Position numbers and translations under genes: made by a program. From Eledone cirrhosa (lineage: Eukaryota): a DNA stretch of 64,000 bases. Positions 6,386 through 59,557 of this stretch are shown here, piece by piece. The stretch lies in assembly GCA_964016885.1 (NCBI GenBank), contig OZ024764.1, forward strand, positions 5,332,001 through 5,396,000, read 5' to 3'. Each line of letters starts with the position of its first letter. Position 1 is the first letter of the stretch. The notes under the pieces are model-generated. The model did no database searches and was not told where the DNA came from. It saw only the letters and a program-made list of their open reading frames with translations.

Positions 6386-6427
6386 GAGACTTGATATGGA
6401 GAGAGATCTTTTATACTTCGATTATAG
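6386..6427 (+). CDS. Putative micro-exon 1 (42 nt, phase 2-2; RLDMERDLLYFDY)
   Basis: TTTAACTATATTTTTTGTAATCACAG | 42 nt | GTAAGT. Confidence 0.7.
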
Positions 6428-6544
6428 GTAAGTTTTAGTTTTACACACTATCTAACCTTTATACAATCTGCTCCTTCCCGTCTCTCTCTCTCTCTCTCTC
6501 TCTCTATTGCTCCAGTTTACTCAGCTGTAGAAATGAGATGATAG

Positions 6545-6577
6545 GATATGCTTCACTAATATAAAAAAGAAATTGAT
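6545..6577 (+). CDS. Putative micro-exon 2 (33 nt; ICFTNIKKKL), native acceptor replaced by SINE sequence
   Basis: GATGATAG | 33 nt | GTAAGT. Same exon as 40547-40579, which has a normal acceptor. Only phase 2 is open. Confidence 0.45.
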
Positions 6578-6966
6578 GTAAGTGTTACCTTAACATACTG
6601 TCTAACCATTGTTTAATCTGCTCCTTCCTCTACCTCTCCCTTTATACACACACACACATATATACCCCTATATATATATGTATACACACACACACACAAA
6701 TATATACACATATATACACACATATATATATAATCACATATATATATACATATATACAAGCGAGACACGGCCTGCTGACCAATCTCGCCTTAAGTGGGAC
6801 AAAACCGTCCAACCCATGCTAGCATGGAAGATGGACTTTAAATGATGATGATATATACACACTGACACATATATATACATATATATATACACATATATAT
6901 ACGCATATATTTATACATATATATATATACACATATATATCCGCATATATATATATATATATATAT

Positions 6967-7078
6967 GAGTTCAAGTCCGCCGAGGTTAACTTTGCCTTTC
7001 ATCTTTACGAGGTCGATAAAATAAAGTACCAGTGGTGTACTGGGGTAATCGCTGGCCTTGTGCCAAAAGTAGAAACTA
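6967..7078 (+). mobile_element. SINE fragment (B box plus Deu/Nin-like domain); copies near 9688, 23637, 26367, 40927, 43556, 56966
   Basis: GAGTTCAAGTCC B box, then TTTGCCTTTCATCTTTACGAGGTCGATAAAATAAAGTACCAG, recognised from memory as the Deu/Nin SINE core. Confidence 0.65.
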
Positions 7079-7191
7079 TAATTATATATATATAACCAAA
7101 GATTAATATAGTTCGTTGATTACTCAACGAATACAGTTGTACAATAGATTAGAAGAACTCAACAGTGAAAGTTTTCCTGGACTTTTTAATA

Positions 7192-7445
7192 TTAACAAAT
7201 GAAAAATATTCTCATAATCAAAATATATACTTTATTATATACATTTCAAAGGTATATGACATACCTCTACGGTCTTGATTCTTCAATTCCAGTATTGCAG
7301 TCACTGCCAATACTGGAATTGAAGAATCAAGACCGTAGCGCTATGTCATAATCATATATTTTGTCTGATGAGGACGTACTGAAAAAACAACAATATATAT
7401 AATAAAGTATATATTTTGATTATGCGAATACTTTTCATTTGTTAA
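7192..7445. repeat. About 254-bp fold-back containing decayed hammerhead halves; copies at 23864-24117, 41154-41407, 43787-44040, 57191-57444
   Basis: Outer arms TTAACAAATGAAAAATATT...ATTATATA and inner arms CTACGGTCTTGATTCTTCAATTCCAGTATTG are each matched by a reverse complement. Confidence 0.9.
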
Positions 7446-7456
7446 CATTTTGAATA

Positions 7457-7504
<48 letters not shown>

Positions 7505-7570
7505 AGGTAAAATGAATAATGAAAGAGTTGCAAGCCTTTAAAACATATCTTTATAAAGCTCTTACATATG

Positions 7571-7629
<59 letters not shown>

Positions 7630-7633
<4 letters not shown>

Positions 7634-7860
7634 CATTTTATGTCCGCTTTTCCCTGCTTGCAAGGGTTGGGCTCTCACCACCACTGGCCATGATTTTCGT
7701 GGTCTTCCTTTTACTGGGATTTTTTAGCACCTCTTTACCCAGCAGTCATCCTCGGTGCACATCACTTGTCCATACCATCTCAGTCTTCTCTCCTGCACAC
7801 CACAACTCATCCCCAGTTTCTCTCTCAACTCATCTATGGTCTTGTTGTTCACGCACATTG
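7630..7860 (-). mobile_element. Short RTE 3' fragment; copies near 10130, 24310, 26810, 41535, 44745, 45530, 57630
   Basis: IDELREKLG..C.VQERRLRWYGQVM plus a GCAAGCAGGGAAAAGCGGACATAAAATGAT tail. Confidence 0.75.
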
Positions 7861-7894
<34 letters not shown>

Positions 7895-9319
7895 TAATTC
7901 TATTGACTGATTAATAGCTCTTGTTAATTTTAAAACCATTCTGTTGAGAGCTTAATTCGTTCTGTGATATTTTGCAATTTTGCAATAACACACATACTGA
8001 ATTCATCCGCCAAAACTAAGGGCTGCCCCCCCCCCCCCCCCCCCTGTGAAGCCCCACGTGGGTTTTGATAACGGTCAGTCCTTGGCTTGGCACTGAACTA
8101 AAAGCCTGTTGAGAAAGTGACTTCCTTGTTCGATCATCATACCAAAAGCTTAACATTATTTGTCTAAGTAGACAGTACTTGATTTAGGAGTTGCAGAAAC
8201 CCAATACTGGATATTACCAACCTTCCAGGGGTCCGGGTATAATTTTCCATCATATTTTATTTGTTTTACTCGAATTACTTGGTCGTGTCTATGGCTGTGC
8301 GGATAATTGTTTAACCATCGTCTCAGTGTGTTTGGCCTTTTAACTTATGTTGTTGCTCTAGTTCACTAGCTTCTATGGAGCGCCTGCCACACATCTCGGA
8401 AGTTGTTTTTCGTTAATTTCCAATAGCAGAAATGCAATTCTCGCTAATTTATATATATATATATATATATATATACACGTATAAGGGATAACAAAATATC
8501 GTTATAGGTAATCCAGGTAGAAGTTGTGAATACTCTGTATTGTGGTTAGTCTTAGTCTACGGCGTTGTTTGACTCAACAAGAGGTTTCCGTAGGTGGCAA
8601 GTATTTGAGTTCTCTTGAATTTCTATGTAAGTTTATCTTGGAGTAATAATATTGAAAGCGTGAAGAATAACATGGTCAACAGTACAAAAGAAGGTTTTTA
8701 TTTACAGTATTAACAATTGTTTCACTGATTAAGTTGTCTAAAAATCGCTGAAAACTTAAAGCTGTGCCACTCAATCTACTATATATATTGGAAGTGGTCG
8801 GACGTTGTATATTTAAGTAAATAAGTAGGTGTAGTCGGATAAACGTCGAAACGGCTTGGTAGAATGCAGCGAAAATTTACACAGTTATGCAGAATTGTAG
8901 CAGTTAATGATGATATATATGTAAAAGAAATAGGATTTCGCTTCAAGCATATCTTTATACAATATGTATAAATATTTTGTATCTCCAAAGAAATACGGTT
9001 TTAGGAAGCCTTAGCTCTGCAAACCCTGGGGGGCTAACGTCCTCTGGTGATGTCCAGCAGAAGCAAGGGGGACAACCGTCTATGCATTTCAGGCTTAACT
9101 GACCATCGTCTGGACAGTCCCTCCCACTGCTTGCGACTGCTGGCCAGTTAAGCGTGAAATGCATAGACGGTTGTCCCCCTTGCTTCTGCTGGACATCACC
9201 AGAGGCCTTGAAACCCTAAGTCCCTTTTGCTCTGTGTATGAACAGAAATAAATAATGTAATATATATATATGTATGTGTGTATCTATTTATATATTTAAC
9301 TATTTTTTTCTCATTACAG

Positions 9320-9352
9320 CACCAATCATTCCTTCGCTTACAAGAAATTTAT
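9320..9352 (+). CDS. Putative micro-exon 3 (33 nt; TNHSFAYKKF)
   Basis: TTTAACTATTTTTTTCTCATTACAG | 33 nt | GTAAGT. Confidence 0.7.
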
Positions 9353-10397
9353 GTAAGTGTTACCTTAACAAACTGTCTAACCATTGTTTAATCTGCTCCT
9401 TCCTCTACCTCTCCCTTTATACACACACACACATATATACCCCTATATATATATGTATACACACACACACACAAATATATACACATATATACATATATAT
9501 ATACACACATATACATATATACAAGCGAGACACGGCCTGCTGACCAATCTCATCTTAAGTGGGACAAAACCGTCCAACCCATGCTAGCATGGAAGATGGA
9601 CTTTAAATGATGATGATATATATACACTGACACATATATATACATATATACAAATATATATACGCATATATCTATATATATATATATGAGTTCAAGTCCG
9701 CCGAGGTTAACTTTGCCTTTCATCTTTACGAGGTCGATAAAATAAAGTACCAGTGGTGCACTGGGGTAATCGCTGGCCTTGTGCCAAAAGTAGAAACTAT
9801 ATTTATATATATATAACCAAAGATTAATATGGTTCGTTGATTACTCAACGAATACAGTTTTACAATAGATTAGAAGCACTCAACAGTGAAATTTTCCTGG
9901 AGTTTTTAATATTATTCAAAATATTAACAAATGAAAAATATTCTCATAATCAAAATATATACTTTATTATATACATTTCAAAGGTATATGACATACCTCT
10001 ACGGTCTTGATTATTCAATTCCACTATTGGCAGTGACTATATATTTATAGGCAAAATGAATAATGAAAGAGTTGCAAGCCGTTAAAACATATCTTTATAA
10101 AGCTCTTACATATGTTATATATATATATATCATCATCATCATTATATGTCCGCTTTTCCCTGCTTGCAAGGGTAGGGCTCTCACCACCACCGGCCATGTT
10201 TTTTGTGGTCTTCCTCTACTGCGTCTTCCTTCTACTGGGATTTTTTAGCACCTCTTTACCCAGCGGTCATCCTCGATGCACATCACTTGTCCATACCATC
10301 TCAGTCTTCTCTCCTGCACATCACAACTTATCCCCAGTTTCTCTCTCAACTCATCTATGCTCTTGTCGTTCACGCACATTGACACACACACATACAC

Positions 10398-10428
<31 letters not shown>

Positions 10429-10654
10429 TATAAGGGATAACAAAATATCGTTATAGGTAATCCAGGTAGAGGTTGTGAATACTCTGTATTGTGGTTAGTC
10501 TTAGTCTACGGCGTTGTTTGACTCAACAAGAGGTTTCCGTAGGTGGCAAGTATTTGAGTTCTCTTGAATTCCTATGTAAGTTTATCTTGGAGTAATAATA
10601 TTGAAAGCGTGAAGAATAACATGGTCAACAGTACAAAAATAGGTTTTTATTTAC

Positions 10655-10760
10655 AGTATTAACAATTGTTTCACTGATTAAGTTGTCTAAAAATTGCTGA
10701 ACACTTGAAGCTGTGCCACTCAATTTTAAATATGTTGTTAGCTTAACCAGATCATCAGAA

Positions 10761-10764
<4 letters not shown>
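10655..10764 (-). ncRNA. Degenerate type I hammerhead ribozyme with extended stem II; copy at 27336-27445
   Basis: Minus strand: AATATT CTGATGA T CTGGTTAAG ... CTTAATCAG T GAAA CAATTG TT AATACT. The base pair closing stem II is lost. Confidence 0.5.
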
Positions 10765-10805
<41 letters not shown>

Positions 10806-11269
10806 TACAAATTATGTCCATAGAACCATTTGATAAGATATATACACCATTTCCTCTCCCAATTAGCATAATCAACCACACAAAAAATCAATTAGGCCAG
10901 GCTATAAGATTAAAAGGCACCTATGATAAAATAGTAGATAAATAAACGACAGCATTTCAATAGCATGTGGAAATCAATTAAATATATCGTCAACCATACA
11001 CAATTAGGTATAAAATTAAAGTTAGAAGAAAAAATGCATATACACATACCAGGATTACGTTTCTACGCTTTAGGGTTTCGTTTGCATTTGGAAATATACT
11101 ATCAAGGATAAATTCGATATAAATTCTATAAATTTATCAAGGATAAATTTATAGTATATTGCTCTGATTATTTAATTTATTAATTCATCATTGAGCCACA
11201 TCGTGAATGGTTGCCAAAAACATATATATCTATGACTTTGTCTAGTTTGTGTATATGTAAATCTTTATA

Positions 11270-11362
11270 TTGATTGTTCCTTATGTAGCACAGCCTTTCA
11301 GATTCCATCTTTGCGCACAAGTCTACAGCAAGCTGGTTGAAGAGTACTCTTGCACGGTGGAA
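11270..11362 (-). mobile_element. Helitron Rep/Hel N-terminal coding scrap; copy at 27971-28063
   Basis: RVLFNQLAVDLCAKMESERLCYIRNNQ resembles the Helitron motif LFQQ..VD.YAKIESERL.FIR.NQ (recalled, not searched). Confidence 0.65.
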
Positions 11363-11365
11363 CAG

Positions 11366-12826
11366 CAACGTAGTAAGTAAGGCAATCAAAGATATGAAGA
11401 TGGGGAAGGCAACCGGTCCATCGGGTATAGCTGCCGAGATGCTGAAGGCATCTGGGTCTGTAGGTCACACTATAACCACACGTATTGTTAACCAGGTAAT
11501 ACTAGAAGGTGTCATACCAAAAGATTGGTGCAGTAGCATCATTGTCAACTGCTACAAAAGTAAAGGTGATGCACTAGATAGAGGAAACTATAGAGGTATA
11601 AAGCTGATGGACCAGGTCATGAAAGTAACAGAAAGAGTTATAGCACAGTTGAAGAGGCACCACTGATGCCCTCTTCCTTGTCAGGCAGTTACAGGAAAAG
11701 TACCTAGCTAAAAGTAAGCCACTCTACCTGGCATTTGTCGACCTTGAGAAAGCCTTTGACAGAGTTCCACGTGCTGTAATCTGGTGGGCTCTTAGAAAAC
11801 TAGGAGTAGATGAATAGCTTGTGAAAGTGGTACAAGCCATGTATAGGGGAGCAGTCAGCAAAGTTAGGATTAGCAATGAGTATAGCGAGGAATTTAGCGT
11901 ACAGGTTGGGGTCCATCAGGGCTCTGTTCTTAGCCCCCTCCTGTTCATCATTGTCCTGCAGGCAATAACGGAGGACTTTAAGACCGGATGCCCATGGGAA
12001 CTCCTGTATGCTGATGACCTCGCACTTATAGCTGAATCTATGGTAGAACTAGAGAAGAAATTCCAAACTTGGAAGCAGGGACTAGAAAGAAAGGGTCTCA
12101 AAGTCAACATGACAAAGACTAAGGTCCTTGTAAGTAGACGAGAAAACAGAACCCAGATCCCCTCAGGGAAATGGCCTTGCTCAGTATGTAGGAACTCCAT
12201 TCTCTGCCCCAAATGCAAACAATGAGTACACAAGAGATGTAGCGGGATCTCAGGAAGCTTAATTAAGAATGTAGGCTTCACATGCAGCAGCTGTGCTGGG
12301 ACAGCAAGCAGCAAACAGCCACAGGAAACAAGTACCACCAATCTCTGGGAGGGCTCTGTAGAAACAGTAGACAGCTTCTGCTACCTAGGTGACCGAATTA
12401 GCAGCGGAGGTGGGTGTTCAGAAAGTACAATAACTAGGGTAAGAATGGAATGGAAGAAGTTTAGGGAACTACTATCACTGCTAGCTGCAAAAGGCTTCTC
12501 CCTCAAAATGAAAGGCAGACTGTATGATGCGTGTATCCGAACAGCGATGTTGCATGGTAGTGAGACCTGGGCTCTGAAGGTGGAAGACTTACGTAGATTA
12601 GAGAGAAACGAAGCCTGCATGCTCCGATGGATGTGTAACAGTAATATACGCGAACGACAAAGCATAAATGAATTGAGAGACTGAGCATAAGAGGAATCAA
12701 ATGCTGTGTGCAGGAGAGGCGGTTGCGCTGGTATGGACATGTGATGCGTATGAAGGATGACAGCTGCATAAAAAGGTGCAGAGCACTAGAAGTCGATGGA
12801 AACCGCGGAGTGGAGGGACCCAAGAT
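11366..12826 (+). mobile_element. RTE LINE RT pseudogene
   Basis: KATGPSGIAAEMLK, NYRGIKL, FVDLEKAFDRV, GVHQGSVLSPLLF, YADD, YLG and LHGSETW, with stops and deletions. Confidence 0.92.
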
Positions 12827-13204
12827 GAGGAGAGAAAGAGTGTGAGAGAGAGAGAGTGAGATAAAGAGAGGGAGTGAAAGAGAGAAATAGAGGGATTGAG
12901 AGAGATACATTAAAACAATAACAGAAGGTCTGACTGGAGAATTTACTTTAGAATTTTAAGAGAAAAGAGGAAGGTTTCAGACTTCTGGAATTCCTTCACG
13001 AAAATGTCCTATATATCTGGAACACAAACTTCAAAAAATGAGACAACCACTTAATAACCTATAGATCATGTGAGCCCACCAGCTAGATAGATTTCATTGT
13101 TACCAGAAGACAGAGTGACTGTTATAAACACAATGTCCCTCCCTAGTGAAGAATGCACCTCCCAAAATACCTTAGAAGACAACCTGGAAGAAAAGAGTAG
13201 AGAT

Positions 13205-14065
13205 CAAAATCAAAAGGTCTTAAAGTCAATTTGGTAAAGACTAAAGTTCTAGTAAGTAGAAAGGAAAACTGGGCCCAGATCTCTTCAGGTAAACTGTCCT
13301 GCTCAGTGTGCAGAAAAGGAGTAGGTAGAAATTCCCATCCTATGTCCCATATAGAAATGATGGGTACACAAAAGATGTTGTGGGATCTCAGGGAGGCTAA
13401 CAAAGAACGTAGCTTCTACATGTGGCCAATGAACAGGAGCAGTAAATAACAAGAACTCTCAGGTTACAATCTCCTTCAAATACCCAGAAGTATCTGTAGA
13501 GGTGGTAGATAGTTTCTGTTACCTAGGTGACTAAATCAGCAGTGGAGTAGGGTGGTCCAAAAATTCAGTAACCAGAGTGAGATTAGATTGGAGAAAGTGC
13601 AGGGATCTACTACTACTGCAAACTACAAAACATTTTTCCATCAAAATGAAGGGCAGACTGTATGACGCAGGTATACAAACAACAATGTTGCACAGCAGCG
13701 AGACCTGGGCACTGTGTGTAGAAGATCTGTAAAGATTGGAAAGAAATGAGCCTCCATGCTTCAATGGATGTGCCATAGTAATATATGCAAATGGCAAAAC
13801 ATAAATGTACTGTGAGAGGATTTAGGCATAAGAGGGATTAGATGCAGTGTGCAGGAGTGGGATTGTTTTGGTATAGACATGTGATGTGTATGAAGGGTGA
13901 CAGCTGTATAAAAAGGTGCCAAACGCACAAAGTTGACAGAGGCCGTGGAGTGGGCAGGTCTAGGAAGACTTGGGATGAGGTAAGGAAAGCTGATTTTGTA
14001 CAATTACACCTAGCTAAGGCAATGACACAGGATGGTGACCTCTGGCGCTATGCACAATTATAGAG
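13205..14065 (+). mobile_element. RTE LINE 3' coding fragment
   Basis: KGLKVNLVKTKVL through DLWRYAQL, with several frameshifts. Confidence 0.85.
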
Positions 14066-14267
14066 GACTACATCCACAATCCACCAGACATTTTCCCTAC
14101 CAACACCCCACACAAGTTCCCAAACCTCACCATAAAGTGGTCCCGCTGCAGCCATGACAAACGTGTCCAGTCCACACTGTACAGTGGTCTTGTAGGTGTC
14201 TTGCCAAAAATCAATATTGGGCCTTAAAACCTTGAGTCCCTTTTGTTCTGTGTATGAACATAAATAA

Positions 14268-14455
14268 TTGTTTCTACTTTTGGCACAAGGCCAGCAATTA
14301 TCCAGTGCATTACTGGTACTTTATTTTATCGACCCCGTAAGGATGAAAAGCAAAGTTAACCTCGGCGGGATTTGAACTCAGATCATACAAGGAGGTAACT
14401 ATGCGTCAAAGCATGGCGTCCGACTCTCTACCGATACTGCCAATCCACCGCCACT
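14268..14455 (-). mobile_element. tRNA-derived SINE with Deu/Nin-like domain
   Basis: Minus strand has an A-box-like TGGCAGTATCGG, B box GAGTTCAAATCC and CTTTTCATCCTTACGGGGTCGATAAAATAAAGTACCAG. It is flanked by ATAAATAAT repeats. Confidence 0.7.
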
Positions 14456-14534
14456 GAATAAATAATGTAGTATATATATATATATTTGTGTGTGTATCTA
14501 TTTATATATTTAAGTATATTTTTTGTAATCACAG

Positions 14535-14576
14535 GACTGATACAGAGGAGGGTACCGCTCCAGAAAATAATGACGA
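14535..14576 (+). CDS. Putative micro-exon 4 (42 nt; TDTEEGTAPENND)
   Basis: TTTTTTGTAATCACAG | 42 nt | GTAAGT. Confidence 0.7.
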
Positions 14577-14640
14577 GTAAGTTTTAGTTTTACATACTAT
14601 CTAACCATTATTCTATCTGTTCCTTCCCGTCTCTCTCTCT

Positions 14641-14677
<37 letters not shown>

Positions 14678-14802
14678 AGGTGTATTACTGGTTGTGTAAA
14701 ACGGTCCAATAAATTTTTGTTAGCAATATTAAGTCTCCACGCTTTTGTATATCTCCAATTCCATTCAAGGGAACAGCTAGATGATGTAAAACGGAGTATT
14801 TC

Positions 14803-14903
14803 TATCAAAATGAAAATCCGAAGGCAAGGTAAAATTTCCAATCATTTTAATCACATCGTGATTAAAATGATTGGAAATCTTACCTTCCTTTGGATTTTCA
14901 TTT

Positions 14904-14908
<5 letters not shown>
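14803..14908. repeat. 106-bp palindrome; copies at 31649-31754, 50013-50119, 59785-59890
   Basis: TATCAAAATGAAAATCC...TTTTAATCAC ATC GTGATTAAAA...GGATTTTCATTTTGATA. Confidence 0.92.
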
Positions 14909-14946
<38 letters not shown>

Positions 14947-15165
14947 TAAGTTAAAAATGTACATCTACATATGCATACTGAAATACTAGTGTGTATATGA
15001 ATACACACACGTATACATATGTAGGTGTAACAAGTCTTTCACTGGTTGCTTTACTGTGAGCAACCCAGCTATTCCGTATGTAAACACACAGACAAACCGG
15101 TTTTTAGAGTCATACTGGTTTTCGGGGGAACACCTTCCCTCTATTCTCCAGAAAGTCAGACAAGG

Positions 15166-15210
15166 AATATTGAACTAGTTTCGTTGTTGTTACAACTCAT
15201 CAGCAATATT
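15166..15210 (-). ncRNA. Minimal type I hammerhead ribozyme
   Basis: Reverse complement of the motif at 15896-15940. Confidence 0.8.
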
Positions 15211-15895
15211 TACCTATCTACCGGCCCCTCTGGAGAATTGTAAAAGCACATATCGTTATATGCTTTTTCTATGAAAATTAGTAGTGGGCAGACTAATTTG
15301 CATAGAGTGTGAGTACGCACCGGTTCAGCGGAGACGATAAAAACAAATAACAAAACGAAATTAAATTTCGTTTCGTTTGTAACTCACTTTTGTATGACTG
15401 ACGCTTAAACAATTAAGTTAAAAATGTACATCTACATATGCATACTGAAATACTAGTGTGTATATGAATACACACACGTATACATATGTAGGTGTAACAA
15501 GTCTTTCACTGGTTGCTTTACTGTGAGCAACCCAGCTATTTTGTATGTAAACACACAGACAAACCGGTAGCTGGGTTGCTCACAGTAAAGCAACCAGTGA
15601 AAGACTTGTTACACCTACATATGTATACGTGTGTGTATTCATATACACACTAGTATTTCAGTATGCATATGTAGATGTACATTTTTAACTTAATTGTTTA
15701 AGCGTCAGTCATACAAAAGTGAGTTACAAACGAAACGAAATTTAATTTCGTTTTGTTATTTGTTTTTATCGTCTCCGCTGAACCGGTGCGTACTCACACT
15801 CTATGCAAATTAGTCTGCCCACTACTAATTTTCATAGAAAAAGCATATAACGATATGTGCTTTTACAATTCTCCAGAGGGGCCGGTAGATAGGTA

Positions 15896-15940
15896 AATAT
15901 TGCTGATGAGTTGTAACAACAACGAAACTAGTTCAATATT
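15896..15940 (+). ncRNA. Minimal type I hammerhead ribozyme
   Basis: AATATTG-CTGATGA-GTTG TAACAA CAAC-GAAA-C TA G-TT-CAATATT: 7-bp stem I, intact core, 4-bp stem II, palindromic ACTAGT stem III and a GUU cleavage triplet at 15931-15933. Confidence 0.82.
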
Positions 15941-16277
15941 CCTTGTCTGGCTTTCTGGAGAATAGAGGGAAGGTGTTCCCCCGAAAACCAGTATGACTCT
16001 AAAAACCGGTTTGTCTGTGTGTTTACATACGGAATAGCTGGGTTGCTCACAGTAAAGCAACCAGTGAAAGACTTGTTACACCTACATATGTATACGTGTG
16101 TGTATTCATATACACACTAGTATTTCAGTATGCATATGTAGATGTACATTTTTAACTTAATTGTTTAAGCGTCAGTCATACAAAAGTGAGTTACAAACGA
16201 AACGAAATTTAATTTCGTTTTGTTATTTGTTTTTATATATATATATATATATATATGACTCTGTCTCTTATAAACCA

Positions 16278-18108: not shown

Positions 18109-18111
18109 ATA

Positions 18112-19943: not shown

Positions 19944-19962
19944 TATATATATATATATGCAT

Positions 19963-49270: not shown

Positions 49271-49767
49271 TGAGGCATATATCTAGTATGTAACACCTTC
49301 CCCACCATCATCCCTCCCAAACACCTTAATTGATGTTATCATCCCACCCCTATAACTACATCCACAATCCACCAGACATTTTCCCTACCAACACCCCACA
49401 CAAGTTCCCAAACCTCACCATAAAGTGGTCCCGCTGCAGCCATGACAAATGTGTCCAGTCCACACTGTACAGTGGTCTTGTAGGTGTCCTGCCAAAAATC
49501 AATATTGGGCCTTAAAACCTTGAGTCCCTTTTGTTCTGTGTATGAACATAAATAATTGTTTCTACTTTTGGCACAAGGCCAGCAATTATCCAGTGCATTA
49601 CTGGTACTTTATTTTATCGACCCCGTAAGGATGAAAGGCAAAGTTAACCTCGGCGGGATTTGAACTCAGATCGGAAAGGGACGTAACTAAATAAATAATG
49701 TAATATATATATATGTATTTGTGTGTGTATCTATTTATATATTTAACTATATTTTTTGTAATCACAG

Positions 49768-49809
49768 GACTGATACAAAGGAGAGTACCGCTCCAGAAAA
49801 GAATGACGA
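49768..49809 (+). CDS. Putative micro-exon 11 (42 nt; TDTKESTAPEKND)
   Basis: TTTTTTGTAATCACAG | 42 nt | GTAAGT. Confidence 0.72.
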
Positions 49810-50114
49810 GTAAGTTTTAGTTTTACATACTATCTAACCATTATTCTATCTGTTCCTTCCCGTCTCTCTCTCTCTTTATATATATATATATATATATATA
49901 TAGTAAGGTGTATTATTGGTTGTGTAAAACGGTCCAATAAATTTTTGTTAGCTTTTGTATATCTCCAATTCCATTCAAGGGAACAGCTAGATGATGTAAA
50001 ACGGAGTATTTGTATCAAAATGAAAATCCAAAGGCAAGGTAAAATTTCCAATCATTTTAATCTCGCCGTGATTAAAATGATTGCAAATCTTACCTTGCCT
50101 TTGGATTTTCATTT

Positions 50115-50152
<38 letters not shown>

Positions 50153-51185
50153 CTCTGTCTCTTATAAACCACGTTGGCTATTATGACACTCTCTCCAACA
50201 TAGATAGCTATGTTGGCTAATATGACTCTCTCTCTCTCCCTCTCTATGTTGGCCATTATGACTCTCTCTCTCTCCCACTCTATGTTGGCTATTATGACGC
50301 TCTCTCTCTCTCTATGTTGGCTATTATGACTCTCTCTCTCTCTATGTTGGCTATTATGTCTCTCTCTCTTTCTATGTTGGCTATAATGACTCTCCCACTC
50401 TATGTTGGCTATAATGACTCTCTCTCTCTATGTTGGCTATAATGACTCTCTCTCTCTCTATGTTGGCTATAATGACTCTCTCTCTCTCTCTCTCTATGTT
50501 GGCTATTATGACTCTCTCTCTCTCTATGTTGGCTATGATGACTCTCTCTCTCTCTCTATGTTGGCTATTATGACTCTCTCTCTCTCTATGTTGGCTATAA
50601 TGACTCTCTCTCTCTCTATGTTGGCTATAATGACTCTCTCTCTCTCTATGTTGGCTATAATGACTCTCTCTCTCTCTCTATGTTGGCTATTATGACTCTC
50701 TCTCTCTCTATGTTGGCTATTATGACTCTCTCTCTCTCTATGTTGGCTATTATGACTCTCTCTCTCTCTATGTTGGCTATAATGACTCTCTCTCTCTCTA
50801 TGTTGGCTATTATGTCTCTCTCTGTTCAAGCTTTATGAAGTTAGTTGAACATCTTCAAAGTCCTCCCATATTCGCCTTGTCTAATATGCGTTCTTGTACC
50901 TGATTATTTCCCCCAAATCTCCTGGGATGTTATAAACCATGATGGCTACCTATCTCACAATTTCTCTCCTGCCCACCCCCTCACACCACCATAGTCTATT
51001 CGACCAATCAAACCTCAGAAACATGTCCCCACCCATTACCAACCCCAACAAACTCTGCCATTACTACTACTTCTACTTTTCTTCTAGCCCTTACCAGCCC
51101 CAACAAACCCTGACATTATTACTACTATTGTCCTTCTAGCCATGGGCTGAGGATAAATGGGGCTACCCCAAATTAATAAATAAAT

Positions 51186-51380
51186 ATGAATCCGCAAGTT
51201 ACCAAGCACCCATGCAAAGCTTTAATTCAGAGACAGGAAGCATACACACCCCACTGCAAAAATTCACCCTTTCCCACGAGTGGTGGCAAATGCCCAAAAC
51301 TCCGAGTTGGAACCATCAATGTAAGCACAATGAAAGGAAGAGCAGGAGAAATTGTAGAGATGCTAGAGCGAAAGGAAATT
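51186..51380 (+). mobile_element. RTE endonuclease 5' stub fused to satellite
   Basis: LRVGTINVSTMKGRAGEIVEMLERK, then an abrupt switch to the 15-mer array. Confidence 0.85.
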
Positions 51381-52170
51381 GTAGGGTAGGGTACCATAGG
51401 GTAGGTTACTGGAGGGTAGGTTACAGTAGGTTAGGGTACCATAGGGTAGGTTACTGGAGGGTAGGTTACCATAGGGTAGGTTACCGTAGGGTAGGTTACT
51501 GTAGGGTAGGTTACCATAGGTTATGTTACCATAGGGTAGGTTATTATAGGGTAGGTTATTATAGGGTAGCTTACAATAGGCTAGGTTACCATAGGTTAGG
51601 TTACTATAGAATAGGTTACAATAGAGTAGGTTACCAGAGGGGAGGTTACGATAGGGTTGGTTACCGTAGGGTAGGTTACTGTAGGGTAGGTTACTATAGG
51701 GTGGGTTACCATAGGGTAGGTTACTGTAGGGTAGGTTACCATAGGGTAGGTTACCATAGCGTAGGTTACTATAGGGTAGGTTACTGTAGGGTAGGTTACC
51801 ATAGGGTAGGTTACTGTAGGGTAGGTTACTATAGGGTAGGTTACCACAGCGTAGGTTACTATAGGGTAAGTTACCATAGGTTATGTTACCATAGGGTAGT
51901 TTACCGTAGGGTAGGTTACCACAGCGTAGGTTACTATAGGGTAGGTTACTGTAGGGTAGGTTACCGTATGGTAGGTTATTATAATATAGGTCACCATAGG
52001 GTAGGTTACCGTAGGGTAGGTTACCATAGGTTAGGTTACTGTAGGGTAGGTTACGATATGGTAGGTTACCATAGAGTAGGTTACCATGGGATAGGTTGCC
52101 ATAGGGTATGTTACCATACCATAGGGCTGGTTACCATAGGGTAGGTTACCATATGTTTGTTAAGGTTAGG
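51381..52170. repeat. 15-bp tandem satellite
   Basis: Same unit as 984-1940. Confidence 0.97.
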
Positions 52171-54339
52171 CTACGCTGGTTTACTCGGTGAGTTAAAACT
52201 CACTTGTGACTGTAGTGTTTTAGAAGAAGTGTCTTAATCTTTAGTGCGCCACTAAATTTTTTAACTATTTCCCCTGAAACTGTTTTTTTTTTTGGGTGTC
52301 GTCTTATGAATCGAATAGTGTCGTATAGGACTATCTGGCATGTTTTCTATGGCTGGATGCCCTTCCTAACACCAACCACGTTTACAGTGTGGGGACTGGG
52401 AGGTTTTTACCATGTTAACTACACGGCCAATTTACAGCGTGGACTGTGTGTTTTATTGTCATGACACCTACACAACCTCATTTATTTAGGACTGGATGTT
52501 GTGTGACCAACATAATTTTACAGAGATGGGGGTGGGAGTAGTGGGGTGGGGGCGTATATTTGGTTAAGAGGTGCCTACTGACTGTAGGTTTCGCTTTGTA
52601 CTTAGGCAAGGGGGATCTTCTGTATTACTGCGTAGCGCCAAAGATCTCGGTCCAGTGACATTGTCTTAGAGAGGTGTAAGTGTGTAAGGTCGGAATTTAT
52701 CAAATCGTTCCAGGATTTTCTGGGTCTGCCTACTCCGTAACTTCCGTCAATTTTGATCACCCTGCACTTTTTTATAAAGCTGTTGTTTTACACACGCATA
52801 ACGTGACCATACCAACGTAGTCTTCTCTCGAGTAAACAGCATCTGATCCCTCTTATTCCTAATTTCTCACTTAGTTCATTTATGCTTTGCCGTTCACGTA
52901 TATTACTATTACACATCCAGCGGCGTATTCATGCTTCGTTCCTCTCCAGTCTGAAACAAACTTCAACAAATGAGACAACCACTTAATAACCTATAGATCA
53001 AGTGAGCCCACCAGCCAGATAGATTTCATTGTTACCAGAAGACAGAGTGACTGTTATAAACACAAAGTCCCTCCCTAGTGAAGAATGCACCTCCCAAAAT
53101 ACCTTAGGAGACAACCTGGAAGAAAAGAGTATAGATCAAAATCAAAAGGTCTTAAAGTCAATTTGGTAAAGACTAAAGTTCTAGTAAGTAGAAAGGAAAG
53201 CTGGGCCCAGATCTCTTCAGGTAAACTGTCCTGCTCAGTGATATATGCAAATGGCAATATATGTAAATGGCAAAACATAAATGTACTGGGAGAGAAATTA
53301 GGCATAAGAGGGATTAGATGCAGTGTGCAGGAGAGGGATTGTTTTGGTATGGACATGTGATATGTATGAAGGGTGACAGCAATATAAAAAGGTGCATAAC
53401 GCACAAAGTTTACAGAAGCCGTGTAGTGGGCAGGTCTAGGAAGACTTAGGGTGAGGTAAGGAAAGCTGACTTTGTACAATTACACCTAGCTAAGGCAATG
53501 ACACAGGATGGTGACCTCTGGCGCTATACACAATTATAGAGGACCTGCCCTCATAAATCCACGAGCTGAGGCATATATCTAGTATGTAACACCTTCCCCA
53601 CCATCATCCCTCCCAAACACCTTAATTGATGTTATCATCCCACCCCTATAACTACATCCACAATCCACCAGACATTTTCCCTACCAACACCCCACACAAG
53701 TTCTCAACCCTCACCATAAAGTGGTCCCACTGCAGCCATGACAAAGATGTCCAGTCCACACTGTACAGTGTTCATGTAGGTGTCCCTACAAAAAACACCC
53801 AGCTCACTGTGTAAATGTGGTTGGCATTAGAAAGGACTTGCAACCATAAAAACCAAGCTAAAGTCAGTTACATGTGAGTGAAACATGGTCCTCTGACCTG
53901 ATCTCCCACAATGGGACAACCCAGCCAACACATTGCCATTTCTTAAGTGCCTTTCCAGAGATCAAGGTAACTGGCACACACAAGTCAGTCAGAGAATACC
54001 TTCTTTATTTAAGGCTTTTAACATCTGAAGCCAGATTTCATCTTCCCCAGCAGTTTTACTACATTTGAGCACTTTAACTGTTCTCGTGACCTCAGCCTCT
54101 GAGAGATTAGTCACCACTCCCAGATACACCTCATCTACATCCAAAGATGCTGTTGTGATCGGGTTTAGGAGGTCAGCAGCATATTCTCCCACCTTGTGAG
54201 GATGCACCTCTCTGAACACAGGAGTACCCCAGATTCATACTTGATAGCAGGTGTGGAGGAGGGCTTCATATTACGAAGTCGGTGGATGATCTGCCAAAAC
54301 ATTTTATGTGCATATGTATGTATATATATATATATATAT

Positions 54340-56180
54340 CATCATCATCGTTTAATGTTCATCTTCTACGCTAGCATGGGTTTGGATGGGAATTTTCCCA
54401 CTTGAGGCAAGATTGGTTATCTTGCTCGTATAGGACTGTCTGGCAGGTTTTCTACGGCTGGATGCCCTTCCTAACACCAACCACATTTACAGTGTGGGTC
54501 TGGGAGGTTTTTACTGTGTTACCTACACGGCCACATTACAGCCTGGACCGTGTTTTTTTTTTGTCGTGACACCTACACGACCTCATTATTTCGGGCTGGA
54601 TGTTGTGGTACCAACATAACTTTACATCGAGAAGGGTGGTGTGGATGGGGTGGGGGTAGTTGGACGGGGGTGTATTTTGGTAAGAGGTGCCTACTGAGTG
54701 TAGGTTTCGCTTTGCACTTAGGCAAGGCAGGTCTTCTGTATTACTGCGTAGCGCCAAAGATCTCGGTCCAGTGACATTGTCTTGGAGAGGTGTAAGTGTG
54801 TGAGATCGGAATTTATCAATTCGTCCCAGGGTTTTCTGAGTCTGCCTACTCCGTGGCTACCATCTATTTTGATCGCCCTGCACTATTTATACAACTGTCG
54901 TCTTTCATGCGCATCACGTGACCATACCAACATAGTCTTCTCTCGAGTAAACAGCATCTGATCCCTCTTATTCCTAATTTCTCACTTAGTTCATTTATGC
55001 TTTGCCGTTCACGTATATTACACATCCAGCGGAGCATGCAAACTTTGTTCCTCTCCAGTCTGCGTAGATCCTCTGCACACAATGCCCAGGTCTCACTGCC
55101 ATGTAACATTGCTGTTCGTATGCAGGCATCATACAGCCTGCCTTTCATTTTTAGAGAGAACCCTTTAGCGGCCAATAGTGCTATAAGCTCTCTGAACTTT
55201 TTCATTCCAGTTCTGACTCTAGCTACTGTACTTTCAGAGCACCCTCCACCACTGCTGATTTTGTCACCCAGGTAACGGAACGTGTCCACTATTTCTATAG
55301 AACCATCTGTGCAATGGAATGAGCTAGTATTTTGTGGGCACTTGCTGCAACTTATTGCATCTGAGCACCGGCCACATATAAAATCTATATTCTGAGTTAG
55401 CTTACCTGTGATCCCACTACATGTTTTATGCACCCACACTTTGCATTTGGGACATAAAAGGGAGTTTCTGCCTACTCCTTTCCTGAGCATGGCCATTTCC
55501 CAGATGGGACCAGTGCCCTATTTTCCCTCCTACATACTAGAACTTTAGTCTTAGACAGGTTAATTTTAAGGCCTTTTGATACTAGGCCATGCTTCCATGT
55601 TTCAAATTTCTTCTCTAGTTCAGCCATTGATTCAGCTATAAGCGTTAGATCATATGCGTATAGGAGTTCCCATGGGCAGCCGGTCTTGAACTCCTCTGTT
55701 ATAGCCTGAAGGGCAATAATAAATAGGACGGGGCTAAGGACAAAGCGCTGATGAACACCAACTTTTACGCTAAACTCTTCACTATATTCGTTGTTAATTC
55801 TAACCTTGCTGACTGTTTCTTTATACATGGCTTGTATAGCTCTCACAAGCCATTCATCAACACCTAGTTTTCTGAGAGCCCACCAGATAATGGGGCGTGG
55901 GACTCTGTTAAAGGCATTCTCCAAGTCAAAAAAAGCTAAGTAAAGGGGTTTACTTTTAGCTAGGTACTTCTCCTGTAGTTGTCATACAATGAAAAGAGTG
56001 TCTGTGATACTTTTACCTGACACAAACCCAAACTGCATTTCATCTAGATCAATTCTCTCTCTGATTAGTTGCGCTATTACTTTTTCTGTGACGCTCATGA
56101 ACTGGTCAATTAATTTAATGCCTCTATAGTTTCCCCTATCTAGGGCATCTCCTTTACCCTTGTAGCAGTTAATGATGATG
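54340..56180 (-). mobile_element. RTE LINE RT pseudogene (paralogue of 4120-5960)
   Basis: ORFs 55472-55924 and 54864-55496. Confidence 0.9.
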
Positions 56181-56591
56181 ATATATATATATAAAAGAAA
56201 AAGGATTTCGCTTCAAGCATATCTTTATACAATATGTATAAATATTTCGTATCTCCAAAGAAATACGGTTTTAGGAAGCCTTAGCTCTGCAAACCCTGGG
56301 GGGCTAACGTCCTCTGGTGATGTCCAGCAGAAGCAAGGGGGACAACCGTCTATGCATTTCAGGCTTAACTGACCATCATCAGGACAGTCCCGCCCACTGC
56401 TTGCGACTGCTGGCCAGTTAAGTATGAAATGCATAGACGGTTGTCCCCCTTGCTTCTGCTGGACATCACCAGAGGCCTTGAAACCCTAAGTCCCTTTTGC
56501 TCTGTGTATGAACAGAAATAAATAATGTAATATATATATATGTATGTGTGTGTATCTATTTATATATTTAACTATATTTTTCTCATTACAG

Positions 56592-56624
56592 GATACACTT
56601 CACTAATAGACAAAAGAAATTGAT
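56592..56624 (+). CDS. Putative micro-exon 12 (33 nt; IHFTNRQKKL)
   Basis: TTTTTCTCATTACAG | 33 nt | GTAAGT. Phases 0 and 1 contain stops. Confidence 0.72.
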
Positions 56625-57455
56625 GTAAGTGTTACCTTAACATACTGTCTAACCATTGTTTAATCTGCTCCTCCCTCTACCTCTCCCTTTATACACACAC
56701 ACACACACACATATACCCCTATATATATATGTATACACACACAAATATATACACATATATACATATATATATACACACATATATATACATATATACAAGC
56801 GAGACACGGCCTGCTGACCAATCTCGCCTTAAGTGGGACAAAACCGTCCAACCCATGCTAGCATGGAAGATGGACTTTAAATGATGATGATATATACACA
56901 CTGACACATATATATATACATATATATATACACATATATATACGCATATATTTATATATATATATGAGTTCAAGTCCGCCGAGGTTAACTTTGCCTTTCA
57001 TCTTTACGAGGTCGATAAAATAAAGTACCAGTGGTGCACTGGGGTAATCGCTGGCCTTGTGCCAAAAGTAGAAACTATAATTATATATATATAACCAAAG
57101 ATTAATATGGTTCGTTGATTACTCAACGAATACAGTTTTACAATAGATTAGAAGCACTCAACAGTGAAAGTTTTCCTGAACTTTTTAATATTAACAAATG
57201 AAAAATATTCTCATAATCAAAATATATACTTTATTATATACATTTCAAAGGTATATGACATACCTCTACGGTCTTGATTCTTCAATTCCAGTATTGCAGT
57301 CACTGCCAATACTGGAATTGAAGAATCAAGACCGTAGCGCTATGTCATAATCATATATTTTGTCTGATGAGGACGTACTGAAAAAACAACAATATATATA
57401 ATAAAGTATATATTTTGATTATGCGAATATTTTTCATTTGTTAACATTTTGAATA

Positions 57456-57529
<74 letters not shown>

Positions 57530-57595
57530 AGGTAAAATGAATAATGAAAGAGTTGCAAGCCGTTAAAACATATCTTTATAAAGCTCTTACATATG

Positions 57596-57633
<38 letters not shown>

Positions 57634-57864
57634 TCATCATTTTATGTCCGCTTTTCCCTGCTTGCAGGGGTTGGGCTCTCACCACCACTGGCCATGTTTT
57701 TCGTGGTCTTCCTTTTACTGGGATTTTTTAGCACCTCTTTACCCAGCGGTCATCCTCGGTGCACATCACTTGTCCATACCATCTCAGTCTTCTCTCCTGC
57801 ACATCACAACTTATCCCCAGTTTCTCTCTCAACTCATCTATGCTCTTGTCGTTCATGCACATTG

Positions 57865-57909
<45 letters not shown>

Positions 57910-58067
57910 TATAAGGGATAACAAAATATCCTTATAGGTAATCCAGGTAGAGGTTGTGAATACTCTGTATTGTGGTTAGTCTTAGTCTACGGCGTTGTTT
58001 GACTCAACAAGAGGTTTCCGTAGGTGGCAAGTATTTGAGTTCTCTTGAATTCCTATGTAAGTTTATC

Positions 58068-58900
58068 TTGGTAAAGACTAAAGTTCTAGTAAGTAGAAAG
58101 GAAAACTGGGCCCAGATCTCTTCAGGTAAACTGTCCTGCTCAGTGTGCACAAAAGGAGTAGGTAGAAATTCCATCCTATGTCCCATATAGAAATGATGGG
58201 TACACAAAAGATGTGGGATCTCAGGGAGGCTAACAAAGAAGGTAGCTTCTACATGTGGCCAATGAACAGGAGCAGGAAATATCAACAACTCTCAGGTTAC
58301 AATCTCCTTCAAATACCCAGAAGTCTCTGTAGAGGTGGTAGATAGTTTCTGTTACCTAGGTGACTAAATCAGCAGTGGAGTAGGGTGGTCCAAAAACTCA
58401 GTAAGCAGAGTGAGATTAGATTGGAGAAAGTGCAGGGATCTACTACTACTGCAAACTATAAAACATTTTTCCATCAAAATGAAGGGCCGACTGTATGATG
58501 CAGGTATACAAACAACAATGTTGCACAGCAGCGAGACCTGGGCACTGTGTGTAGAAGATCTGTAAAGATTGGAAAGAAATGAAGCCTCCATGCTTCAATG
58601 GATGTGCCATAGTAATATATGCAAATGGCAAAACATAAATGTACTGTGAGAGAAATTAGGCATAAGAGGGATTAGATGCAGTGTGCAGGAGAGGGATTGT
58701 TTTGGTATAGACATGTGATGTGTATGAAGGGTGACAGCTGTATAAAAAGGTGCCGAACAAACAAAGTTGACAGAAACCGTGGAGTGGGCAGGTCTAGGAA
58801 GACTTGGGATGAGGTAAGGAAAGCTGACTTTGTACAATTACACCTAGCTAAGGCAATGACACAGGAGGGTGACCTCTGGCGCTATGCACAATTATAGAGG
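58068..58900 (+). mobile_element. RTE LINE 3' fragment
   Basis: Paralogue of 13231-14065. Confidence 0.85.
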
Positions 58901-59515
58901 ACTACATCCACAATCCACCAGACATTTTCCCTACCAACACCCCACACAAGTTCCCAAACCTCACCATAAAGTGGTCCCGCTGCAGCCATGACAAACGTGT
59001 CCAGTCCACACTGTACAGTGGTCTTGTAGGTGTCCTGCCAAAAATCAATATTGGGCCTTAAAACCTTGAGTCCCTTTTGTTCTGTGTATGAACATAAATA
59101 ATTGTTTCTACTTTTGGCACAAGGCCAGCAATTATCCAGTGCATTACTGGTACTTTATTTTATCGACCCCGTAAGGATGAAAGGCAAAGTTAACCTCGGC
59201 GGGATTTGAACTCAGATCATACAGGGAGGTAACTATGCTTCAAAGCATGGCGTCCGACCCTCTACCGATACTGCCAATCCACCGCCTGAACATAAATAAA
59301 TAATTGTTTCTACTTTAGGCACAAGGCCAGCAATTACCTAGTACATTACTGGTACTTTATTTTATCGACTCCGTAAGGATGAAAGGCAAAGTCAACCTCG
59401 GAGGGATTTGAACTCAGATCGGAAAGGGACGTAACTAAATAAATAATGTAATATATATATATGTATGTGTGTGTGTATCTATTTATATATTTAACTATAT
59501 TTTTTGTAATCACAG

Positions 59516-59557
59516 GACTGATACAAAGGAGAGTACCGCTCTAGAAAAGAATGAGGA
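59516..59557 (+). CDS. Putative micro-exon 13 (42 nt; TDTKESTALEKNE)
   Basis: TTTTTTGTAATCACAG | 42 nt | GTAAGT. Phase 0 has TGA and phase 1 has TAG. Confidence 0.72.

Follow-up and report, generated by a model that had tools for sequence, protein, structure and literature searches.

Micro-exon cassettes in the window

What kind of gene contains a series of coding segments of only 27, 33 or 42 nt, and does it combine them into different products? The window in which this question arose is a stretch of 64,000 nt of Eledone cirrhosa DNA (GCA_964016885.1, contig OZ024764.1, positions 5,332,001 to 5,396,000, forward strand). An initial annotation of its sequence had described 13 symmetric micro-exons, and all 13 are present on the + strand at the starts given there, each preceded by AG and followed by GT(A/G)AGT. 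Their lengths are 42, 33, 33, 42, 42, 33, 33, 42, 33, 27, 42, 33 and 42 nt in order, and phase 2 (frame offset 1) is the sole frame open across all of them. They are cassettes 94-106 out of the 107 in a gene that we call P1:

6386..6427, + strand: micro-exon 94 of 107, B-type flanks, 42 nt, RLDMERD type
6545..6577, + strand: micro-exon 95, A-type body and donor, 33 nt, weak acceptor
9320..9352, + strand: micro-exon 96, A-type, 33 nt, YxxF present
14535..14576, + strand: micro-exon 97, B-type acidic, 42 nt
23120..23161, + strand: micro-exon 98, B-type flanks, 42 nt, diverged copy of 94
23269..23301, + strand: micro-exon 99, copy of 95, weak acceptor
25995..26027, + strand: micro-exon 100, copy of 96
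31383..31424, + strand: micro-exon 101, copy of 97
40547..40579, + strand: micro-exon 102, A-type basic, 33 nt
43207..43233, + strand: micro-exon 103, A-type basic, 27 nt, donor GTGAGT
49768..49809, + strand: micro-exon 104, B-type acidic, 42 nt
56592..56624, + strand: micro-exon 105, A-type basic, 33 nt, exon sequence identical to 107
59516..59557, + strand: micro-exon 106, B-type acidic, 42 nt

The downstream flank is common to all 13 segments and the upstream flank to 11 of them. The two exceptions are the segments at 6545 and 23269, where the pyrimidine flank is lost. Five upstream AGs would give these two exons lengths of 62, 53, 47, 40 or 33 nt, of which only 33 is in frame; we regard both acceptors as weak because the pyrimidine flank is lost and only one of the five AGs keeps the frame. 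Nor do the 13 segments represent 13 separate designs, since they encode nine distinct peptides and four of them (23120-31383) lie within a ~17-kb tandem duplicate of 6386-14535.

Extent and reading frame of the array

When the neighbouring DNA was scanned with the flanks, as the initial annotation had proposed, 107 cassettes were obtained instead of 13. They are spread across 528 kb with a median spacing of 6.1 kb, and the entire window (1..64000, + strand) lies inside this 5' cassette array of P1. Across the 3.0-Gb genome, the donor-flank pattern matched 104 times forward and 6 times in reverse (reversed control, 0) and the acceptor-flank pattern 109 plus 6 times (control, 0), which excludes chance. 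Cassette size ranges from 27 to 78 nt, or 9-26 codons, and 49 distinct peptides are encoded. A canonical donor is found in 103 cassettes and, rather than showing random lengths and frames, all 103 are a multiple of three in length and stop-free. Among 55 distinct exon sequences, stops occur in none at offset 1, compared with 41 and 22 in the other frames, and 19 of 19 independent clusters are stop-free in one frame only (P ~2e-7, shuffling). The earlier statement that no exon-pair junction creates a stop extends to the 103 cassettes. Only 10 of 88 flank gaps, from pairs that are not independent, have a length divisible by three.

The symmetric phase-2 micro-exon array at P1 is thus confirmed. 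All derive by duplication from two cassettes, A and B, and the proposal of coding micro-exons that arose by cassette duplication is supported, now for 103 of them. The symmetry of the cassettes means that any combination of them can be joined to the transmembrane exon described below, and combinatorial splicing, as first proposed, is plausible.

The gene downstream of the array

The P1 gene spans ~765 kb (G000:C25 ~4,864,400-5,629,515). Micro-exon 107 is the last cassette ahead of a transmembrane exon at C25:5,413,283, which lies 17.3 kb past the end of the window and 13.75 kb after cassette 107 and begins in phase 2. Together with 20 further exons (21 exons) it gives an open reading of 646 aa with no stop. 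The Peptidase_M13 profile PF01431 scored 27.5 bits (cut-off 24.5) against the zinc-motif exon of the paralogue P2 including 31 intron-coded residues, and P1 is 97% identical to P2 in this region and 97-100% identical across the M13-matching exons. The last exon matched the M13 profile with 23.9 bits (E 3.7e-5), the M13_N match was weak (E 0.0099), three of seven exon queries matched M13, and the best PDB match was ECE-1 (E 0.004). Both gene models, P1 and P2, contain the M13 motifs VNAFYY and QENIAD. Scanning the genome with PF01431 and PF05649 did not pick up P1, and M13 exons turned up on C2, C3 and C24. Word-index searches with single exons or with exon plus in-frame intron gave no relatives, an Atlas search gave no match at 0.9, and an exhaustive search with a 59-aa exon returned two matches, both unrelated repeat proteins. 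As evidence these blanks are weak. The ectodomain is very divergent, with no relative found by single-exon queries.

The zinc motif reads HKIFH in P1 and HQIFH in P3, while P2 and P4 keep HEIFH, and P1 is without the catalytic Glu and one conserved Cys. With HKIFH as its zinc motif, the P1 peptidase is probably inactive and the ectodomain probably non-catalytic. In the 1,997-aa reading of all exons, a single hydropathy peak (maximum 3.04) stands at the anchor after the array, with basic residues ahead of it, and the maximum 19-residue hydropathy of the array part is 0.56. We consider the P1 product most likely to be a type II membrane protein, with a predicted cytosolic tail built from cassettes.

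This gene structure differs from both readings offered by the initial annotation. A tandem gene family does not agree with the single first-exon block upstream of the array and the single transmembrane exon downstream, neither of which occurs inside it. A MEG-like secreted product finds no support in the order of the gene, in which the array precedes the transmembrane exon and M13 ectodomain and the one hydrophobic stretch is the anchor. A secreted or extracellular variable protein, MEG-like or mucin-like, could also come from a separate gene or from a product that terminates ahead of the M13 part or is cleaved off it. Such a protein would suit the symmetric micro-exons, the hypervariability typical of exposed proteins and an architecture like that of SmPoMuc; several peptides are Thr runs and NxS/T occurs in 12 of the 30 distinct A peptides, both of which look extracellular. 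However, neither a signal-peptide exon upstream of the array nor a separate terminal exon for the cassettes on either flank was found in unique sequence, the hydropathy of the array stays low, and in all four paralogues a phase-matched transmembrane exon comes after cassettes with flanks of this family. We therefore regard a secreted product as very unlikely. A neuropeptide precursor, considered for the KK pairs, was ruled out, as no signal peptide was found and a membrane anchor follows.

Paralogues, array growth and intronic hairpins

Cassette copy number is 107 in P1 and 4-6, 1 and 9 in its three paralogues. The last cassette before the transmembrane exon is basic in all four genes, and in P3 and P4 it is Cys-rich too. 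The possibility that P2 is a mis-placed haplotype of P1 (~1% difference) is disfavoured, since P2 lies in gap-free sequence and the homology ends internally on both sides. Growth of the array is illustrated by the tandem duplication in the window, in which 6917-14466 pairs with 23583-31171 and 15568-21566 with 32883-38871. A hairpin element also recurs in the introns of the window:

6917..38871, + strand: recent tandem duplication of ~17 kb, two paired blocks, 99.0% and 99.1%, respectively
6104..6268, no strand: intronic hairpin element (dispersed MITE-like repeat, carried by cassette)
9041..9205, no strand: intronic hairpin element
22838..23002, no strand: intronic hairpin element
25716..25880, no strand: intronic hairpin element
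40264..40428, no strand: intronic hairpin element, arms 65 nt, 97% complementary
42926..43090, no strand: intronic hairpin element
56311..56475, no strand: intronic hairpin element

Over the whole array, the hairpin lies upstream of all 49 standard A cassettes and of 4 among the 54 of B type. Its 53 copies could cross-pair over exons; the 5' arm of 40264..40428, for example, also pairs with the 3' arm of the following copy, across exon 102. As a docking element of the Dscam kind it would not be specific to this locus, because the arm has 2,775 matches genome-wide and the element is a dispersed repeat.

These features bear on how the cassettes are used. When all 103 canonical cassettes are strung in order, the reading stays open for 1,350 aa, and 99 of the 107 cassettes keep strong, near-identical splice sites. 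Along with the varying copy number of the paralogues, this would fit constitutive inclusion, by which P1 would make one low-complexity cytosolic tail of up to ~1,350 aa, a multivalent motif scaffold, and variation would lie in copy number between alleles and paralogues, not in splicing. On the other hand, identical splice sites at such spacing over the length of the array compete mutually, and the self-complementary elements can pair across exons. Symmetry of exons in multiples of three matters most where exons are skipped, and its strictness here also speaks against constitutive inclusion, although duplication yields symmetry as well. We consider constitutive inclusion unlikely.

Gene start and peptide motifs

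A start exon like that of P3 and P4 was not found in P1. Its first exon was read from one conserved block, with an in-frame TGA immediately before the donor of this putative exon, and it is possible that a coding exon further upstream was missed. Among the 103 exons, 43 end in AT and 80 begin with G, and P1 start codons may be made across junctions by splicing an AT-ending to a G-starting exon (AT/G). The sorting-type motif YxxPhi is present in 15 of 15 Tyr-bearing A peptides against a shuffle mean of 4.3, an enrichment that is not independent evidence because the exons share ancestry.

Exon change and intron sameness

In 60 random pairs of each type, A-type exon bodies are 72% alike (~28% different) and their flanks 98.9% and 98.4% alike over a median of 590 and 733 nt, and B-type exons are 66% alike compared with 97% for the downstream flank. 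Profiles of two A-type reference units show differences at 27% and 35% of exon sites, compared with 1.1-1.3% elsewhere over 3.5-4.1 kb. The exon peak of the B-type reference unit was unclear in the profile (6% vs 2.4%) because divergent exons broke the alignments. Exon divergence is thus 6 to 25 times as fast as that of the intron alongside. Among the exons themselves, pN (0.056) does not exceed pS (0.060; 36 tree edges), and four-fold sites are raised too (8/156 vs 0.93% in flanks), so that these values do not demonstrate positive selection at the protein level. Exon change templated by RNA editing was rejected, as A/G (21) and C/T (20) show no bias among 87 exon differences. Rapid change is odd for a cytosolic tail. 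The near-identity of the introns may be kept by conversion or recent copying, and selection would keep the exons different yet in frame.

The same values raise the question of whether P1 is a decaying or unconstrained duplicate, in which neutral unequal crossing-over enlarged the array and only the last few cassettes, or none, are used. In the ectodomain, pN and pS are 0.011 and 0.010 against P2, and 0.045 and 0.033 against P3 (few sites), giving no sign of purifying selection. The loss of the catalytic Glu and conserved Cys, the missing start exon, a satellite of ~159 kb in a P1 intron and the damaged state of P3 are also consistent with decay. However, neutral copying cannot give the observed exon divergence while all exons stay in frame and stop-free, and the 646-aa frame is intact, its indels relative to P2 being 6 and 3 nt. 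Decay is, in our view, improbable.

Read evidence

Among 24 listed read runs, four (X21-X24, one study), none of them listed as RNA, contained at least half the words of the last exon; the other 20, with word shares of 0.05-0.11, were set aside. Reads of X21, X22, X1 and X2 were compared with a stretch holding the transmembrane exon and two more exons, and no micro-exon. In this repeat-dominated comparison, none of the 15 joints (of 1,556) and 24 loose ends (of 5,079) listed falls at a predicted exon boundary, and no splice junction with a micro-exon was seen. Contigs of X21 cover the three exons with P2 letters, one of them ending at place 5148, 2 nt from a predicted exon end, and X21 is without cover at six intron places covered by X22. 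This pattern resembles spliced RNA, a hint that bears on the three ordinary exons, not on the micro-exons. A little residual depth at place 3459 may be P1-type; contig depth does not allow genes to be ranked. Neither X1 nor X2 covered the bin of the transmembrane exon.

A proposed history and use of the array

Based on these observations, we lean moderately towards P1 being one large M13 type II membrane-protein gene, whose predicted cytosolic tails are built from cassettes and varied by skipping. Judging from P3 and P4, this gene would go back to an ancestor in which a start exon was followed, in phase 2 throughout, by one B-type micro-exon, then an A-type juxtamembrane one and the transmembrane exon. 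Repeated unequal crossing-over then multiplied the A and B cassettes, introns included, to 107 in P1, as the nested duplications show. The result would be an isoform family with one ectodomain and many cytosolic N-tails bearing YxxPhi, acidic, basic and Cys motifs, which would set sorting or partner binding.

More tentatively, P1 could be an expressed non-catalytic receptor or decoy, with a tail made by skipping among ~100 hypervariable micro-exons, AT/G starts and exon blocks looped out where the co-duplicated hairpins cross-pair. If this were true, P1 would be a diversity generator of Dscam scale inside the cell, and a process or selection confined to exons would raise change some 20-fold over the adjoining intron. 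The locus is a test bed for why exons can outpace neighbouring introns, as it offers ~100 copies, a signal sharply confined to exons and paralogues at four different stages, with 1, 4-6, 9 and 107 cassettes. Annotation based on open reading frames would miss the P1 micro-exon array.

Comparison with known systems

The closest architecture is that of SmPoMuc of Schistosoma mansoni. In the part of the source available to us, a 27 bp micro-exon with its flanking introns is tandemly repeated inside the gene, at most 20 times in units of ~1 kb, with exon types r1, r1', r2 and r3; introns are homogenised (>93-94%), exon types are distinct and repeat numbers vary among paralogues (PMC2576457). As far as that account goes, both systems have tandem units of micro-exon and intron with introns more alike than exons, microsatellites beside the units and paralogues of varying repeat number. 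P1 differs in its 107 units, 6.1 kb apart at the median, and its 49 peptides; SmPoMuc is a secreted glycosylated mucin, whereas P1 continues into a membrane anchor and M13 ectodomain, and the two would not be expected to be related in sequence.

Schistosome MEGs, in the sections of the reports at hand, have symmetric exons of 3-81 bp, 10-20 exons, a signal peptide and small secreted products, and are reported from flatworms only (PMC4350168; bioRxiv 10.1101/2023.06.21.545858). On that description, P1 resembles them in its very short symmetric exons, long introns, transposon-rich setting and fast exon change, and differs in its two duplicated cassettes, the signal peptide that was not found and the 646-aa part of ordinary exons that follows. 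As in MEGs, micro-exons would make up most of the P1 coding sequence (1,350 of 1,997 aa) with every canonical cassette counted in, but not if most are skipped.

The isoforms of ECE-1 differ in their cytosolic N-tail and in sorting. Four ECE-1 isoforms are given in the accessible part of PMC2259306, which describes for the M13 family the VNAFY and ENIAD motifs, the HExxH region, a type II anchor and lineage-specific expansions with members lacking catalytic residues. P1 shares the M13 motifs and a predicted type II anchor with neprilysin and ECE-1, and has HKIFH instead of HExxH. Our literature search turned up no M13 gene that carries an array of micro-exon cassettes.

Finally, Dscam1 arrays and the 5' cassettes of chelicerate sDscam are, in the portions of the literature covered, dozens of tandemly duplicated exons in a membrane-protein gene, as in P1. 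The cassettes of Dscam code for extracellular Ig parts, and their use is mutually exclusive or set by promoter choice; those of P1 comprise 9-26 codons, are freely combinable by phase and are predicted to be cytosolic. The known exon-array systems (Dscam, MEGs and SmPoMuc) vary the protein outside the cell, and the cassettes of P1 lie on the side predicted to be inside it.

The cassette array

The 13 segments of the initial annotation lie where it placed them, are 27, 33 or 42 nt long, end in AG and GT(A/G)AGT and share one open frame; its common acceptor flank holds for 11 of the 13, and is lost in two A bodies in the window and in two elsewhere (A and B denote two flank types). The micro-exon observation is real and extends beyond its first description. 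When the genome (2,996 Mb, 1,796 contigs) was searched for the flank patterns, the donor flank gave 104 forward and 6 reverse matches and the acceptor flank 109 and 6, with 0 for the controls, and the matches listed are all on contig C25 (OZ024764.1). Across C25:4,812,001-5,526,000, covered without gaps, the array, larger than first noted, holds 107 cassettes (symmetric phase-2 micro-exons with intron flanks) from 4,871,418 to 5,399,532, nos. 94-106 being inside the window.

Donors are canonical in 103 cassettes, GAAAGT in one and damaged in three, which run 57 nt up to the remaining GT. The canonical cassettes measure 42 (n=53), 33 (n=21), 30 (n=17), 78 (n=5), 36 (n=5) or 27 nt (n=2) and represent 55 distinct sequences and 49 peptides. 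Random lengths or frames in further cassettes, which the initial annotation took as a sign against its reading, were not found: all 103 are multiples of three and stop-free in one frame. Frame offset 1 is free of stops in every one of the 55 sequences, the other two frames being interrupted in 41 and 22 of them, and no end-start pairing of cassettes makes a stop. After collapse to 19 clusters, 19/19 were stop-free (P ~2e-7 by shuffling), compared with 7/19 and 12/19 in the other frames. Gaps in the flanks were multiples of three in only 10 of 88 cases, the pairs not being independent.

Flanks of type A (n=50) and B (n=53) follow each other in irregular order at a median spacing of 6.1 kb, and the array grew by segmental duplication, as in the 17-kb pair of the window. 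Between copies of this duplicate, window 14942-16167 matches 33012-31787 in inverted orientation at 98%, and a 467-bp tandem repeat (window 32416-33551) adjoins this match. LINE-like reverse-transcriptase fragments and 15-bp satellite blocks were co-duplicated with cassettes, and AT microsatellites are also present in the window; these repeats resemble those of an octopod genome. By eye, each 78- or 57-nt cassette resembles a pair of A exons brought together by a deletion, with a remnant of the acceptor flank between them.

Repeat blocks and long cassettes
Window 984-1921, 18363-19683, 35674-36994, 46066-47809, 51382-52153, 62185-63074: 15-bp satellite / LINE-like blocks
C25:4,952,553; 4,968,128; 4,985,029; 5,066,424; 5,306,123: 78-nt long cassettes
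C25:4,902,087; 5,229,117; 5,252,286: 57-nt long cassettes

Exon divergence against intron flanks

The cassettes combine frame constraint with divergence limited to the exons. When 60 pairs with differing peptides were drawn at random, A exons were 72% alike and their flanks 98.9% upstream (median 590 nt) and 98.4% downstream (733 nt); B exons were 66% alike against 97.1% for the downstream flank, the upstream flank being alignable, over a short length, in 39 of 60 pairs. Relative to two A reference units, 27% and 35% of exon sites differed, compared with 1.3% and 1.1% in the remaining 3.5-4.1 kb; the B-unit profile (exon 6% vs 2.4% elsewhere) was uninformative. Along nearest-neighbour edges, using the most divergent flank pair, the exon difference was 5.9% vs 0.93% for flanks, and 8/156 four-fold sites had changed in exons. 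Since pN (0.056) and pS (0.060) of the cassette exons were alike, the fast exon change gives no simple dN/dS signal, and no A-to-G bias was found among exon differences.

The host gene and its paralogues

Unique sequence 3' of the array carries ordinary exons, and the array is linked in the genome, phase-matched, to a transmembrane and M13 (neprilysin-like) frame, in a gene named here P1.

P1 exons and the paralogues P2, P3 and P4
C25:4,864,370-4,865,057: candidate P1 first exon, ending in a donor; block common to P2 and, at 75%, P4
C25:5,413,283: P1 transmembrane exon, phase-2 start, encoding the membrane anchor
C25:7.16-7.33 Mb, minus strand: P2, ~99% identical to P1; HEIFH; open 647-aa frame; 4 cassettes
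C25:7.49-7.55 Mb: P3, one cassette found, 1.2 kb 5' of the anchor; HQIFH; two damaged exons
C25:25.03-25.35 Mb: P4, 7 B cassettes (36 nt) and 2 A cassettes (42 nt); HEIFH

The transmembrane exon and 20 further exons, to 5,629,515, form an open frame of 646 aa; with all exons joined, P1 would have 1,997 aa and a single hydrophobic peak, at the anchor. VNAFY and ENIAD, M13 family marks according to PMC2259306, were found in P1. Pfam Peptidase_M13 scored 27.5 bits (cut-off 24.5) with the zinc-motif region of P2, near-identical to P1, and the best solved relative was ECE-1 (E 0.004). The P1 zinc motif is HKIFH, with the catalytic Glu lost, and a Cys common to P2, P3 and P4 is replaced. By motifs and profile, P1 is an M13 member that lacks the active-site HExxH.

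A 46-bp satellite (C25:5,458,400-5,617,368) is an amplified copy of the beginning of the next M13 exon, 46 nt long, together with its acceptor site. The satellite occupies all 68 kb read and resumes immediately 5' of that exon, and may therefore extend ~159 kb. Its 17-nt acceptor word has 726 exact copies in 66 kb, and thousands of decoy acceptors would sit 5' of the real exon. It is shorter in P2 (~6 kb) and P3 (~1.6 kb).

Genome-wide, the zinc-motif and transmembrane exons each occur four times, all on C25, and the four paralogues have the same layout. The P4 cassettes are all multiples of three and open; beyond cassettes and HEIFH, its description covers part of its exons. The P2 5' end (7,262,000-7,331,500) contains a tandem partial duplicate (first-exon block and 2 cassettes), with a ~30 kb tandem repeat between. 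The P1 transmembrane region is 70% identical to P3 and 66% to P4, and the next ectodomain exon regions of P3 are 92-99% identical to P1, so fast change is limited to N-terminal exons. The transmembrane exons (5,413,283 vs 7,498,8xx and 25,176,2xx) are strongly divergent with hydrophobicity kept, and their intron flanks are visibly similar. A fifth last-exon copy (C25:24,978,232-24,978,333, minus, 94%) has a conserved Cys changed and is probably a fragment, because no matching zinc-motif or transmembrane exon was found. Conventional M13 genes lie on contigs C24 (clustered, 7.50-7.83 Mb), C3 and C2.

The 5' end and start codons

The block at 4,864,370-4,865,057 is likely the P1 first exon, and has an in-frame TGA just 5' of its donor. 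A 57-bp tandem repeat within it (4,864,595-4,864,918) carries GTAAGT donors and upstream ATGs, and its copy number in P1 differs from the two P2 copies. P3 and P4 have a common phase-2 exon with an in-frame ATG, of dispersed-repeat origin (40 matches scored of 93 candidates); in P4 the first ATG is lost and another stands in the same frame. No such exon was seen in the P1 and P2 sequence covered. Between the putative first exon and cassette 1 there are three weak ATG-donor candidates, and 12 exons of the P1 array contain an internal in-frame ATG. Since 43/103 P1 cassettes end in AT, 80/103 start with G and 31/102 neighbouring pairs, cassettes 1 and 2 among them, form ATG, candidate starts built at junctions are available; that start codons are made in this way is conceivable, although somewhat doubtful.

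Splicing, topology and proposed product

The cassettes are very probably spliced to the anchor. In reads placed on the transmembrane-exon region, where the reference is without a micro-exon, no micro-exon junction was seen. A type II anchor is expected to have basic residues at its cytosolic face; the last cassette is basic in all four paralogues, and also Cys-rich in P3 and P4. The cassette-encoded tail is probably cytosolic, and the subsets of cassettes included may well vary. Across the 714 kb covered, a hairpin (-142 kcal/mol, z -18) occurs only 5' of cassettes, 49/49 of the standard A type and 4 of the B type. Adjacent copies have arms that complement each other across an exon, and the hairpin possibly aids exon skipping. 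It is also a dispersed repeat (1,393 + 1,382 matches), and so may be a passenger.

In the proposed model of a membrane protein with a cassette-built tail, the tails would set sorting or partners. Two observations were counted against this model: 12 of the 30 A peptides contain NxS/T sequons, and the ectodomain lacks a purifying-selection signal. We consider the fullest reading, in which an expressed non-catalytic P1 would build its cytosolic tail by combinatorial skipping among ~100 micro-exons, with junction-made start codons and exon blocks looped out by hairpin pairing, rather unlikely.

Comparison with known systems

In the literature searched, with most subscription journals outside its coverage, no M13 gene with such a cassette array was found; inactive invertebrate M13 members are known (PMC2259306). 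Symmetric micro-exons are common to P1 and the schistosome micro-exon genes (MEGs), but no signal peptide, a feature of MEGs, was found in P1. According to PMC2576457, the Schistosoma mansoni polymorphic mucins (SmPoMuc) carry a 27-bp exon in 1-kb repeats, with introns homogenised and exon differences retained. The architecture of the P1 array matches this description, although P1 has 107 copies and SmPoMuc <=20.
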